From assembly GCA_964016885.1 (NCBI GenBank), contig OZ024740.1, forward strand, positions 198,090,001 through 198,154,000: a stretch of DNA of 64,000 bases, written 5' to 3'. Origin of the DNA: Eledone cirrhosa. Lineage: Eukaryota. This document shows positions 15,590-30,685 of this stretch, piece by piece. Both the position numbers and the translations under genes were made by a program. The notes under the pieces are model-generated. The model worked only from the letters and a program-made list of their open reading frames with translations, did not search any database and had not been told where the DNA came from. Positions within the stretch are counted from its first letter, which is position 1. Every line of letters begins with the position of its first letter.

Positions 15590-16620
15590 TATGATAATAA
15601 GGGCGCTGCGGAGTTGCAAATGGGTTACATATGAAAAAAGTTTGTCCTTCATCAGTGATCTTCCAACCATCATAGGCATTTCATCTCTTTAAAGACCATA
15701 TACCTCCGGTTGGTGCGAGCAACGGCTAAAAAAAGTCGTTGGGACACGTAAATAAAGGGGACGCGAGGGTAAACAAACAAAATGGTGAAGCAACAGAAAG
15801 TGAGGAAGAAAGAGACAAGTCCCAGATTTCTATGAATTTAAGTTCGGTGAAATCGTGAACGAGAAAATAAAGACCATCAAACCTGGTTGAAATGTGAGCA
15901 AGGAAGGAATTTCGCACAGGTCTAACGGAGGAAGAAGGGGTCTGGTCTGCGAATTCGGTAAACATAAGTTCTGTGAAATCGTAGACGAGAGAGAGAAAAA
16001 ATTCCGACCAGCTTGGCCGAGAGTGCGAGAGAAAAGAATTACTCACAGGTCAAACGGGAAGAAAGAGGAGGAGGAGAGGTAGTGACAGAGAATGAGTGAG
16101 TGAAGGGTGAGGAAGAGGCTAACAGAGAGAGAGAGACTGCTAGAAAGGGTAAAGATACATAGAACGAAAAAGACTGTAGCAGCAGAGGAAAAAATATGTG
16201 TAAATATGATAATAAGGGCGCTGCGGAGTTGCAAATGGGTTACATATGAAAAAGGTTTGTCCTTCATCAGTGATCTTCCAACCATCATAGGCATTTAATC
16301 GCTTTAAAGACCATATACCTCCGGTTAGACCTGTGCAAAATTCCTTCCTTGCTCACATTTCAACCAGGTTTGATGGTCTTTATTCTCTCGTTCACGATTT
16401 CACCGAACTTAAATTCATAGAAATCTGGGACTTGTCTCTTTCTTCCTCACTTTCTGTTGCTTCACCATTTTGTTTGTTTACCCTCGCGTCCCCTTTATTT
16501 ACGTGTCCCAACGACTTTTTTTAGCCGTTGCTCGCACCAACCGGAGGTATATGGTCTTTAAAGCGATGAAATGCCTATGATGGTTGGAAGATCACTAATG
16601 AAGGACAAACCTTTTTCATA
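15590..16620. repeat. (TA)n-flanked tandem + inverted repeat unit (Penelope pLTR-like, family A)
   Basis: 15591-15711 repeated directly at 16206-16326; 16324-16620 is the reverse complement of ~15630-15927. Confidence 0.85.
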
Positions 16621-17497
16621 TATATATATATATATACCAAAAAAGAGAAATAGGACGAAGGTAAATAGTTGCAAAAGAATTTAATCCACGTATTAACAAT
16701 TGTTTCATCAGAATTTCAGTCCATTATTGCTACACTATGTAATATGGCACTTAAAAGGGAATAACCGACAATACACCTTAAATGGACCAAACTCTCACAT
16801 GCTCCTCCATACCGGAGTGGGATGAAAACGTGCCCGTTGTGTAATAATGAGCTCTTCCATATTCTAAGCTCAAGCCACCAACTACTCAACAACAAAATTG
16901 AAAGGTCAATTTTTTGCCAGCATAAACTGAAAGCGAAATTCTCACACTTCAAACCTTCAACTAAATCTTAACACTACATCTCTTTCTACCCTAAATAACA
17001 ATTCCACACTCCTAAAAATAGACTATATATGAAATTTAATACTTTCATCCTTCATCTATTCTCTGGTATGCCTTTCGCCTGTCCACTACCAAATGCCACT
17101 TAAAATTATATCTTCCTTCTCTCTCCCTCTACTCATCACAACTTTTAGCACACAACCCCCCGCCCCCTCCCTTCTTGTAACTTAACTATATTCTATACAA
17201 ATCCTCTCACACCACCCTATCCCTTTCTCTTTCTCTCCCTACCTCCATCCCTTTTCTCTCTCTCTCTCTCCCTCTCTCCCTCTCTTTTGCCCCTCTCTCT
17301 CTCTGTTCCTCTATCTTACACTACTACCCCTTATTTCATTTCCTAAGGTCATTCCAACTTTGTATTTTGAAAATTTCTCTTTTTGGATTACACGCCTCGT
17401 TTGTTCGTGTTTCCACTACTGAATCCCTACCAACCTGTCGAGTCACCTTAACGTATGTTGAGAACTTTCATCACAACTTGTTCTACCAAGCTTTGGA

Positions 17498-18280
17498 ATA
17501 TATTCACCTAGCTTATGCTAAACAGAATAATTATGAAGCTTGTTTCATTCCCCTACGGTTAGCTATACTCTTTGTTGTTCTCCTGTCTCACTCGCTTTAC
17601 GCGTTTTAATTGTCCTAATAACTTATTTTAGTTATTATTGCACCGACGTGAGGTATATGATTTTTAATGCAATGAAATATCTATGATCGTCGGCAAATCA
17701 CTGATGGGGGACTCATTTTATTACATGTTATCCATGCGTTACCTGCAGTATTTTTCTCCATATTTTATTACATATATTTACCCAAACTGCGATTCTGTGT
17801 TTTTCTCTCTCTCTCTTACTGCTCCCCATTCTCCCTGTTTCTCCTACCTTCTTTTTCCCCCTCTGTCATGTCAGTTAACTCTTCCTCACACTTTCACTCA
17901 CTCACTGTTTCTCCTATCTTCATTTCATCCTGTACACCACGAAGGCTATTTTTCTCTCTTCCCACATGGCCATCGTTCGTGTAAGGTCTTTTTTCTAAAG
18001 CGCTCATATATTCACCTAGCTTATGCTAAACAGAATAATTATGAAGCTTGTTTCATTCCCCTACGGTTAGCTAAACTCTTTGTTGTTCTCCTGTCTCACT
18101 CGCTTTACGCGTTTTAATTGTCCTAATAACTTATTTTAGTTATTATTGCACCGACGTGAGGTATATGATTTTTAATGCAATGAAATATCTATGATCGTCG
18201 GCAAATCACTGATGAGGGACTCATTTTAACACATGTTATCCATGCGCTACCTGCAGTATTTTTCTCCATATTTTATTATA
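17498..18280 (+). repeat. Tandem direct repeat (~275 bp x2), pLTR-like family B
   Basis: 17498-17770 and 18008-18280 near-identical, each preceded by a CT-rich tract and ending at (TA)n. Confidence 0.85.
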
Positions 18281-18479
18281 TATATATATATATATATATA
18301 TATATATATATATATATATATATATATATATATATATATATTTATATATATATACAGTAATAATGAGTATTCCAAAGCTTGGTAGAGCAAGTATATATAT
18401 ATATATATATATATATATATATATATATATATATATATATATATATATATACACAAATTCATATATATATATATATAGA

Positions 18480-28010: not shown

Positions 28011-28344
28011 TACTTTAATAACCTGTGTAATTTTCGTTCTACTAATTTATTTACATCATTCTTAATTCCGAAGCCGTGAATCATTCAGTTACCTAAATAG
28101 AATATTAGTTTATACCATAAACGTGGTTTAGTCTTTGCATGTAATTTTTCTCATCACTCCACATAACGACGTATTTTTTCCGTTGAGTGCCAGGTAACGT
28201 CTTCACGAAACAATTTATCGTCTTCCTGTTTTCTTTCGGTTGCAATGTTTTTCGAAATATTTACTTCTGCGTTCACAGATTAATTTTTTTAGTTTCAGAA
28301 GATCCCGTTAAGGGTGAAAGCAGCGATTCTTTGCTTAAACTTTA

Positions 28345-29155
28345 ATCTGTTATATATATATATGGTATTAGGAATGGTGCTCTGAAATAAGCGATGTATA
28401 GTATATTATGTAATATACCGCATGTTTAATTAAAAACATTTAGAAGACCATTCGCTATCAGTTTTAAAGAGGTGACTATGTCACTTACTTCTTTTCGGCG
28501 AAAGAAGGGAGATAAGCTGAGAGTCTGTTTCACGCTGGATTGCGTTCATCAGAAACACGCACTTCCCTGTTTCCGCCGAAAATTATAGAAGGCGGATTCT
28601 TATAATTCCAATACATTCATGTATACATCGCTATTTCAGAGCACCAATCCTAATACCTAATTTTTGCTGGACCGGCAATCCCTCTGTATAATCAGCTCCT
28701 GATTATTACTGGAATTCTATAAGAATCCAGCTTCTATAATTTTCGGCGGAAGTAGGGAAGTGCGTGGCTCTGATAAACGCAAACCAGCGCGAAACAGACA
28801 GTCAGCTAATATCCCTTCTTTCACCGAAAAGAAGTGACATAGTCACTACTTAAAAAATTGATAGCGTATGGTCTTCTAAATGTTTTTAAGTAAACATACA
28901 GCATACTGTCATATATACTATACATACATTATATATATGCATATATATATTATATATATATATATATATATATATATATATATATATATATATATATATA
29001 TATATATATATATATATATATATATATAATATACATATAATATACATATGTGTATTATATATAATGTATTTATAGTATATTTGACAGTATGCTGTATGTT
29101 TACTAAAAAACATTTAGAAGACCATACGCTATCAATTTTTAAGTAGTGTCTATGT
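28345..29155. repeat. Nested inverted-repeat cluster carrying two hammerhead copies (pLTR-like)
   Basis: 28344-28380 inverted at 28621-28657; 28432-28609 inverted at 28711-28887; 28837-28915 inverted at ~29078-29155 across (TA)n. Confidence 0.85.
28765..28808 (+). ncRNA. Type I hammerhead ribozyme (mutated copy; mirror copy at 28514-28557 minus)
   Basis: Consensus of the two copies: TGGCT-CTGATGA-ACGC aatcca GCGT-GAAAC agact GTC|AGCTA. Confidence 0.65.
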
Positions 29156-30119
29156 CTTCCATTCTACTCTACCTTCTCCAATAACTTCCTTTAAGAAATA
29201 CAAGGGTATTTACATTTTAACCATTCTGCTCTGAGGAAATCGTAGTCGCAGCATTTGAAAATTGAGTTTATGCAATCAAATAATTATTACTTATCAATTG
29301 CACATAGCATGAATAGGCTGTATAACTACTGTTGAAACATTTGTAAGCACTCGGAATAAATTACCTTTTTATGATGTCTACCTGTTATTATTCATTCTTT
29401 ATATATATATATATATATATATATATATATATATATATATATATATATATATGTGTGTGTGTGTATGTGTGTGTGTGTGTGTGTGTGTGTGTGTGTGTGT
29501 GTGTGTGTGTATGTGTGTGTGTGTGTATATAATGGATTTAATGTTAAACTTTGGTTCCCTTCATTTAACGAAGGAAAAGTGGTAAGGAACCAGGTGGACC
29601 ATAACGCACCAAAGTACGCAATACTTAGGGTAGTAGAGTGGGTAATTCTGGATAGAATTTAGATTTTAGTCCAGAATTAGCCGTCGAAACGGCTTGAGCT
29701 CAGCCGTCGGGGTCCTACTCGTTCCTATATGTATATATATATATATATATATATATATATATATATATATATATATATATATATATATATATATATATAT
29801 TTATATATATATGTGTGTGTATGTATATATATATACATAGTGACTGTGGTGCTGAAACCGGGGAGACCATGGGGAGATGCACAGTGGGTATAGAGATAGG
29901 TAAATTCCCGACCAACTGGTATACTGCTTGGCACTACTGACGTGATTTGACGTCTCTCTCTCTTTAAATATATTTATATATATATATATAATATATATAT
30001 TGAGAGAGAGATAAATAAAGAGAGAACAACTCATGCAGTTCCCACAGTGATATAACACGGACGGTTTATTGGTGTTGTTTACAATATATATATATATATA
30101 TATACACATATATATATAG

Positions 30120-30685
30120 GCTTAACAATGGAATGTGAATAAGAAGAAAGCAACAACGGTGGGAGGGGGGTTTTCCTCGTCAGTTCTCTACTGGGGTTCT
30201 CGGATATTTTAACGCTTTAAAGACAATATATCTTCACCCAGAGCGTTCAATAAGTGGGTAAGGTATTAGGAAAACGGAGGAGGAAGAAAAGGAAAATAGA
30301 AGGGAAGAGGGAAACAGGGAACAAAAGAGAAAACAGCGAAAAAAAACAATAAATCGAGAAATGTGCAAGCAACTTAAGGTAAGAAAATCCAAGACCACAG
30401 CGGTAACAGAACTTAAGTTCGAGAGCGTATGGGCGTACGAAATGACACGACTAACCCCAGCGAGTGTGAGAAAAGGACTGCTAGAATGTCAGGCGAGAGA
30501 AACAATGCGGTGGCTCACAGAGAGAGGGTGAGTAAAAGTGAGAGGGAGAAAGGGAGAGGAAGTAAGAGAGGGACGAGTAGATAGTAACGAAATAGGTAGG
30601 TAGAGGGAAAGAGAAGACTGGTCACAGCGAAACATGATAAAATATATGGAAAATAGGATGGTTGTGCAGTTGCTATTTAAGTTAT
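30120..30685 (-). repeat. (TA)n-flanked pLTR-like repeat, family C
   Basis: Same architecture as families A/B (CT-rich tracts on the sense strand, ...gaacttaa module, conserved structured motif at 30170-30242). Confidence 0.55.

Follow-up and report, generated by a model that had tools for sequence, protein, structure and literature searches.

A 64,000-nucleotide (nt) stretch of contig OZ024740.1 (assembly GCA_964016885.1, positions 198,090,001 to 198,154,000; hereafter the window) holds six copies of an RNA motif in three families of repeats, A, B and C. The motif is best read as a new wiring of the hammerhead ribozyme in animal retroelements, real and structured. It carries the complete hammerhead core, U16.1-H17, GAAA and CUGANGA, in the non-circular order cleavage site, GAAA, CUGA (S-G-C). 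Judged from sequence comparison, the motif is likely a hammerhead-type RNA with its stem II partner at the 5' end, which would cut tandem transcripts after H17 into units that are then circularised and reverse-transcribed into (TA)n tracts. There is also a good probability that intact copies self-cleave as hammerheads.

The original prediction had proposed an unclassified motif with half of the hammerhead core, either a rearranged hammerhead or a new ribozyme class. The core and the stems in S-G-C order support the rearranged hammerhead. The core is whole, not half, and the S-G-C block order has already been published (PMC10085705). The predicted coordinates and strands were confirmed for all six copies, and a covariance model trained on other loci matched the same six alone in the window (53.6-74 bits; runner-up 13.6).

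Fold of the motif and its copies in the window

The motif had been described as two helices, P1 and P2, around a 20-nt loop, followed by a CUGAYGA box. Since the GAAA block precedes the 3' strand of P2 in all three families, P2 corresponds to stem III of a hammerhead, which ends with the A15.1-U16.1 pair and is followed by H17. Stem I is a pseudoknot between the 5' half of the 20-nt loop and the 7-nt segment preceding CUGAYGA, and stem II a second pseudoknot between the 3' half of the loop and the 4-5 bases immediately upstream of P1. The chain order site, GAAA, CUGA follows from these assignments. The linker leading from stem I to stem II is UAAN (4 nt, or 5 nt in a long interspersed nuclear element (LINE) of the same genome), and between stem III and P1 lies a 3-nt bulge, then GA facing NGA or NUA.

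A hairpin, Pa, lies immediately 5' of the stem II partner and outside the bounds first given, and the bases preceding Pa form a helix, P0, with the bases directly following A9. Thus P0 and Pa stand in for the backbone link from A9 to 10.1. The true start of the motif is 30-40 nt further 5' than the predicted extent of about 70 nt, since the stem II partner, the hairpin and the closing helix all sit there. Over 24 lineages P0 scored 5.8 on average; swapping the tails gave 3.9 (at most 5.2 in 2000 swaps) and shuffling them 3.5. The topology is that of the published type-SGC hammerhead with its ends joined via a kink-turn-like (k-turn-like) loop and reopened at A9/10.1. At the level of the fold predicted from sequence and covariation, stems I to III, P1, the core bases, the 3-nt bulge with its G.A pair, P0 and Pa are all established. 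The copies in the window are as follows.

Copy B2, 18120..18220, plus strand: full motif, the sole window copy with every core base and helix intact. P0a 18120-18124; H17 18165 (predicted cut after 18165); CUGAUGA 18209-18215. From 5' to 3' it reads P0a, hairpin Pa, stem II partner, P1, k-turn-like loop, stem III and H17, then stem I, UAAU linker, stem II, GAAA, stem III', P1', stem I', CUGAUGA and P0b.
Copy B1, 17612..17712, plus strand: A9G; predicted cut after 17657; one 508-bp unit upstream of B2.
Copy A3, 16504..16607, plus strand: G5A in the core, likely inactive. P0a 16504-08, Pa 16509-30, stem II partner 16532-35, P1 16537-42, loop strand 16543-45; stem III 16546-50, H17 16551, stem I 16552-58, linker 16559-62, stem II 16563-67, GAA 16568-70; stem III' 16571-75, bulge strand 16576-81, P1' 16582-87, stem I' 16588-94; core 16595-16601, P0b 16603-07.
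Copy A1, 15643..15746, minus strand: core intact, one stem II mismatch; predicted cut after 15699.
Copy A2, 16258..16326, minus strand: G12U; H17 at 16314; 5'-clipped at an inversion junction and lacking the stem II partner, Pa and P0a.
Copy C1, 30170..30275, minus strand: G12U; Pa damaged relative to other family C copies; H17 at 30227.

The loop sequence TAAA in copies A2 and C1 is a copy-specific change. An alternative in which U replaces G12 and TAAA serves as the GAAA block was dropped, as other family A and C copies read GAAA.

To sample the motif more widely, we used patterns that fixed only its 3' half. This yielded 188 distinct rows, 67 of which passed pairing-blind filters. Alignment A1 contains 60 of the 67, seven having been dropped by eye (four truncated or inverted, three with a 1-nt shift), and alignment A2 combines 16 metagenome rows and 6 genome rows into 19 distinct rows. 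The search patterns behind both alignments forced CUGAYGA and GAAA. In alignment A1 neither U16.1 nor the identity of H17 was forced; U16.1 is present in 55 of 60 rows and H17 is not G in 59 of 60. The hammerhead hallmarks CUGANGA, GAA, the A15.1-U16.1 pair and an H17 other than G are therefore all present.

In a kink-turn, a 3-nt bulge is followed by G1b.A1n and A2b.G2n. Position 1n of the motif, which was unforced, is A in 59 of 60 rows of alignment A1 and in 19 of 19 of alignment A2. The GA of the bulge strand was forced by the search pattern; when left unforced it is present in about 80% of the excess matches. In one variant, family D2 (L097, L135, L171 and others), loci are 2 nt shorter around the stem I linker, and the strand facing the bulge is AUC, which can pair Watson-Crick to leave a plain 3-nt bulge. 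A box C/D small nucleolar RNA was also considered for this region and dropped, because the copies conserve no C box and differ in the base that follows the bulge GA.

Abundance, covariation and alternative folds

The genome is 3.0 Gb in size and rich in microsatellites. A first-look DNA search gave 1051 candidates for family A, 952 for family C and 174 for family B. The pattern GAAA-N7-GA-N14-CTGAYGA has 24,051 genome matches against 219 for the reversed pattern, and a pattern holding UH, UAA, GAAA and CUGANGA in register has 20,202 against 22 for its control. Without the GA the counts are 32,015 and 2,131, an excess that is due in part to a sibling family of 466-470 bp units with a type I hammerhead. 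Longer GAAA-CUGA spacings gave 1,888 matches against 362, mostly 1-nt insertion variants among the matches listed. Two other repeats in this genome deserve mention. The sibling family (L164, L165, L172-L174) is an abundant tandem repeat that lies at (TA)n and carries a canonical type I hammerhead, in line with the analogy to sibling repeats drawn in the original prediction, and is a classical retrozyme family in the same genome. A separate repeat family (L166, L167, L175, L179) has GAAA and CUGAUGA similarly spaced and does not fit the fold.

Beyond this genome, metagenome and viral contigs were searched with a pattern that fixed no whole pair other than U16.1-A15.1. Among the metagenome contigs, 16 of 23 pattern matches keep the register and form 18-21 of the 21 pairs with helices of unrelated sequence, while none of the 45 matches in viral contigs forms more than 13 of 21. 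The contigs of a sequencing run labelled with a second organism cover the motif in at least two variants, and the motif is present in four contig runs.

The five-helix model paired 87.5% of cells in alignment A1 (60 genomic copies), with a covariation of 0.618 compared with 0.239 for shuffled and at most 0.175 for slid alignments. In alignment A2 it paired 96.9% of cells, with a covariation of 0.866 against 0.286. Stem I is 99.1% paired in alignment A2 and stem II, using the 5' strand, 96.8%; the 5' strand supplies all five stem II pairs, and G10.1-C11.1 is found in 11 of 19 rows. P1 is 90-96% paired across both alignments, and both P1 and P2 pair and covary as had been predicted. With a tree-aware null (a custom R-scape-like script, not R-scape) applied to 33 thinned rows including the metagenome, pairs of the model took the top 7 places among 3003 column pairs, and four pairs, in stems II, I and P1, had E<0.05. 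An apparent covariation between stem III and the tail ranked 5 and 8 (E 1.8 and 6.6) in the same kind of test on 67 rows and fell to rank 23 with the 33 rows; it is perhaps due to ancestry.

These results bear on whether the pairings could lack any RNA function and simply result from common ancestry and the formation of inverted repeats in a young repeat. The copies are related, and folding the full motif gives modest z-scores (-1.6 to -1.9, with pseudoknots left out of the folding). However, the tree-aware covariation, and the finding that unrelated sequences from other records as well as a LINE family share this register, largely refute this explanation, and we give it next to no weight.

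Two alternative pairings had been suggested for the motif, and neither holds up. A GTCTT:AGGAC pseudoknot between loop and tail is 60.7% paired and a type II pairing TGAT:ATCA 47.9%, each at or below shuffles; jointly they are 54% paired in alignment A1 and do not beat the shuffles. That the motif is not a canonical hammerhead was borne out, in that it fits none of types I, II and III and its block order is S-G-C rather than CGS, GSC or SCG. The Rfam searches likewise agreed with the prediction, giving no hammerhead or other ribozyme match over any copy (150 of 202 matches listed; 10 loci; a further search). The missing Rfam match and the misfit to types I to III would suit an undescribed ribozyme class that shares only the CUGAUGA box and a loop-to-tail pseudoknot. 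Such a class is highly improbable given that GAAA, U16.1-A15.1, H17 and stems I-III all stand in hammerhead geometry, and that the loop-to-tail pairing falls below shuffles.

Another possibility is a plain type-SGC hammerhead in which the bases following CUGANGA build a very short stem II and the pairing at the 5' end acts as an inhibitory alternative. The base following A9 can indeed pair with 11.1 in 80% of alignment A1 rows (A-U, G-C, U-A or G.U). Beyond that one pair, however, the 3' strand is unpaired, and even that pair fails in 13 of 19 alignment A2 rows, whereas the 5' strand, so fully paired in the same alignment, holds the top covarying pair. Furthermore, the bases 3' of A9 pair with P0a instead, and a partial re-implementation of the published descriptor gave 0 matches in the window and 17 loci. 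We consider this arrangement very unlikely and prefer a hammerhead whose stem II is completed from the 5' end.

Host elements and proposed life cycle

The motif occurs in short tandem repeats without an open reading frame (ORF), with one motif per unit. Same-strand spacings are 440-769 nt in 70 of 74 cases, the 510 class being inflated by overlapping loci of one array, and the distance from the motif to the next (TA)n is at most 81 nt in 29 of 46 copies. The repeats show inverted truncated copies and one-ended extensions, as described for Penelope-like elements. Three such elements lie in the window.

Family A element, 15579..16624, both strands: on the minus strand, a 615-bp monomer in about 1.2 units; on the plus strand, an inverted, 5'-truncated copy; both 3' ends face outward into (TA)n; no ORF.
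Family B element, 17498..18288, plus strand: partial tandem of a 508-511-bp monomer with (TA)n at its end; no ORF; arrays of at least 8 units occur elsewhere in the genome.
Family C element, 30117..30684, minus strand: about one 560-bp unit between two (TA)n tracts; no ORF.

The motif was also found in protein-coding elements. In 6 of the 16 metagenome matches, an ORF with a terminal endonuclease domain, taken by its motif to be restriction-like (PD-(D/E)xK-like), stops within about 60 nt of the motif; a Pfam search gave no match for this domain. Two more endonuclease frames were recognised by eye among the remaining metagenome matches, two matches have none in 600 nt, and the rest are clipped or broken. 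Two copies of perfect fold in AT-rich contigs (L339, L351) have no LINE frame in the 600 nt upstream and nearly no P0.

Searching the motif's own genome with that endonuclease protein gave 150 scored matches, of which the 30 best loci were examined. Twenty-three of the 30 are one young LINE family with the same fold in its 3' untranslated region (UTR) and a CUGAAGA core. A model built without this family matches 24 of the 30 loci, older families included, and 14 of the 30, found by protein and thus free of pattern bias, have all core bases in register. At one locus (L387) a 3' fragment is fused to a full-length reverse transcriptase (RT)/endonuclease element that ends in (TA)n, with a motif at each end, 3,599 nt apart. 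The broken frames of L387 and L388 show RT and endonuclease in a single-ORF layout, and their homologues carry PF00078. The RT region of L388 shares 84-86% identity with the best-matching teleost proteins; with Takifugu Q76IN2 and Tetraodon Q7T1J8, taken here as HERO and Zebulon, the identity is 66-68%, and on this basis the LINE is provisionally assigned to the HERO clade. If the host is not a fish, the identity of the young LINE to teleost proteins points to a recent horizontal transfer.

Among 120 listed homologues, 15 end in a peptide that matches the translated 5' half of the motif, terminating at the codon that holds U16.1-H17. In these proteins (P0025, P0039, P0055, P0063, P0078 and ten more) the ORF enters the motif, so that the predicted cut would fall between the last sense codon and the stop. 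This is an indirect indication that the named fish elements may carry the motif.

The original prediction had described the host repeats as like the pseudo-long terminal repeats (pLTRs) of Penelope elements. No Penelope ORF was found attached to the motif, which lies within 1.5 kb of none of the 30 top-ranking GIY-YIG loci out of 150 scored (the loci read did not include Naiad-type elements), and in the two Penelope-type neighbours read a (TA)n tract separates each from the motif. A Penelope-type element is present in the window.

Broken Penelope-type element, 13949-15520, plus strand: RT end, zinc-finger linker and GIY-YIG; a minimal type I hammerhead-like site, 15289-15325; related elements in L286 and L287.

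This element shares its terminal (TA)n tract with the family A repeat, yet is a separate insertion. Our custom type I descriptor missed its hammerhead-like site at 15289, and the descriptor's blank for type I is thus uninformative. As to the enzyme that mobilises the ORF-less repeats, we slightly favour one of Penelope type; a LINE with a restriction-like endonuclease is the less probable source, though a serious one, and any other enzyme is improbable.

Other features of the window include CUGAYGA sites at 19915 (plus strand) and 28552 (minus strand), each followed by a hairpin and GAAA, which are candidate type I hammerheads; a weak Rfam match to a hepatitis delta virus (HDV)-like ribozyme at 54856-54934 (minus strand; 27.9 bits against a cut-off of 44 bits, E 0.4); a near-complete endonuclease/RT LINE at 21345-24095 (plus strand); a broken RT element at 4426-6982 (minus strand); and a long, perfect-looking inverted repeat at 48375-48650.

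In the mechanism that we propose, the kink would bend P1 back to reach the far ends of stems I and II. From hammerhead chemistry, the cut would fall after H17 and leave 5'-OH and cyclic phosphate ends. Each pair of motifs would release one unit, which would be closed into a circle as reported for type I retrozymes (PMC7229834). Copying round the circle, primed at (TA)n, would restore the whole motif and overshoot into a partial tandem. Reverse transcription round a circle, or along an uncut multimer, would yield copies that run through the cut site, and partial tandems. The same account would cover both the ORF-less repeats of 440-770 nt and the LINE with two motifs flanking a 3,599-nt unit.

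The position of the motif allows a different role. The motif could descend from a hammerhead that is now slow or silent and act mainly as a structured 3'-end element, bound by the retrotransposon protein for target-primed reverse transcription. In keeping with this, the motif sits just upstream of element 3' ends (close to (TA)n in the repeats, in the 3' UTR of the LINE), the sequence of genomic copies always continues across the cut site, the repeat families often lack the G10.1-C11.1 pair, and a pseudoknotted RNA is bound by the R2 protein (PMC12222951). We nevertheless regard such a role as unlikely, since all core bases are kept across lineages that share little helix sequence, including the pattern-free LINE loci, and H17 avoids G, which a binding element would not need.

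Several observations weigh against an active hammerhead of the wiring proposed here. Five of the six window copies are damaged. P0 is weak in 3 of 24 lineages (3 bp or less, score at most 3). At 11.1 the genomic repeat families mostly have U or A and not C, which could slow catalysis, and the partner of 11.1 in alignment A1 is mixed, with the 5' flank pairing in 46.7% of rows compared with the 80% given above for the 3' neighbour. A stem II strand directly 3' of A9, with no more than 1-2 bases inserted, is taken as obligatory for hammerheads (PMC10085705), yet here such a strand is paired in only 41.7% (alignment A1) and 34.7% (alignment A2). Position 2n is G in 16 of 19 rows of alignment A2 and in 30 of 60 of alignment A1, where it is U in 26; 2b.2n is thus A.G in only 30 of the 60 rows (A-U in 26), and many families have a non-standard k-turn. 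When the 67 genome copies alone were put through the first tree-aware test, no pair fell under E 0.11, and pairs of the model made up 11 of its top 25. Finally, where copies are truncated, their 5' breakpoints are commonest at the UAA linker, and the excess at the predicted cut is mild. Among the first 100 of 1,698 matches, scored by eye, about 27 break at the UAA linker, for the most part next to (TA)n, roughly 8 break at H17/1.1 and about 15 over ten other positions, the rest being point or indel variants.

Comparison with known hammerheads and retroelements

On balance we lean towards an active seventh permutation that splits the 'indivisible' CUGANGA/stem II block and has a built-in k-turn closing the fold, and that would be the standard 3'-UTR ribozyme of HERO/Zebulon-type LINEs across animals, captured by retrozyme-like repeats. 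Eckert et al. (2023) described six permutations, assuming that CUGANGA and its flanking strands stay together (PMC10085705). Their type-SGC (HRIMA-1 and variants) cleaves in vitro at 0.007-0.13 per minute with flanks and was reported from metatranscriptomes only and from no genome of a known organism; how the interaction helix reaches stem III is left open there. The present motif has in common with it the S-G-C block order, the full core, a short linker between stems I and II and a fourth helix tying these stems together. In the published forms, the stem II and interaction strands lie 3' of CUGANGA, whereas both lie at the 5' end of the present motif. In addition, the break at A9/10.1 divides block C, P1 is connected to stem III through a k-turn-like loop, P0 and Pa are extra elements, and the motif resides in chromosomal DNA. 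Because it fails the block C feature, we do not file the motif as type-SGC. Many type-SGC variants have an extra U between A9 and G10.1 (PMC10085705), and this joint therefore tolerates change.

The motif thus offers an example of an S-G-C hammerhead on animal chromosomes, where it is present about 20,000 times. It goes against the view that CUGANGA cannot be parted from its stem II strand, and its k-turn-like loop would serve as a connector between the interaction helix and stem III. In the literature searched, with most subscription papers, repeat databases and preprint supplements lying outside the search, we found no report of the present wiring.

With non-LTR retrozymes (PMC7229834; bioRxiv 10.64898/2026.07.22.740005) our repeats share a short, ORF-less tandem layout with one ribozyme motif per unit. 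Those retrozymes have type I hammerheads, the only type in the available portion of the latter preprint, and units of about 150-450 nt; the present repeats differ in topology, have units of 440-770 nt and are known from DNA alone. Similarly, partial tandems, inverted 5'-truncated copies, one-end extension and (TA)n targets are common to our repeats and the pLTRs of Penelope-like elements, whose hammerheads, however, are minimal type I, and the present motif comes with no attached Penelope ORF (bioRxiv 10.1101/2021.04.23.441226). Naiad elements were reported to lack hammerheads in the same preprint. Since the motif escapes both Rfam and the published descriptor, such statements need a second look.

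HEROTn has been placed under HERO (PMC7650587). In the literature searched, which did not extend to the original Zebulon paper, Repbase or Dfam, no hammerhead is reported in HERO or Zebulon elements. Our LINEs resemble HERO/Zebulon-type elements in their single ORF, with RT and a C-terminal PD-(D/E)xK-like domain, and in their partial tandem layout. R2 is known to carry an HDV-like ribozyme, situated at the 5' end. With the present motif, a hammerhead-type fold is found in the 3' UTR of a LINE lineage related to R2, and the idea that partial-tandem LINEs pass through a circular intermediate can be put directly to the test. Lastly, the loop differs from a kink-turn in having U at 2n in about half of the genomic repeat rows, its kinking being a prediction, and it shares with the kink-turn the 3-nt bulge followed by G.A, together with A.G in the LINE-type copies.

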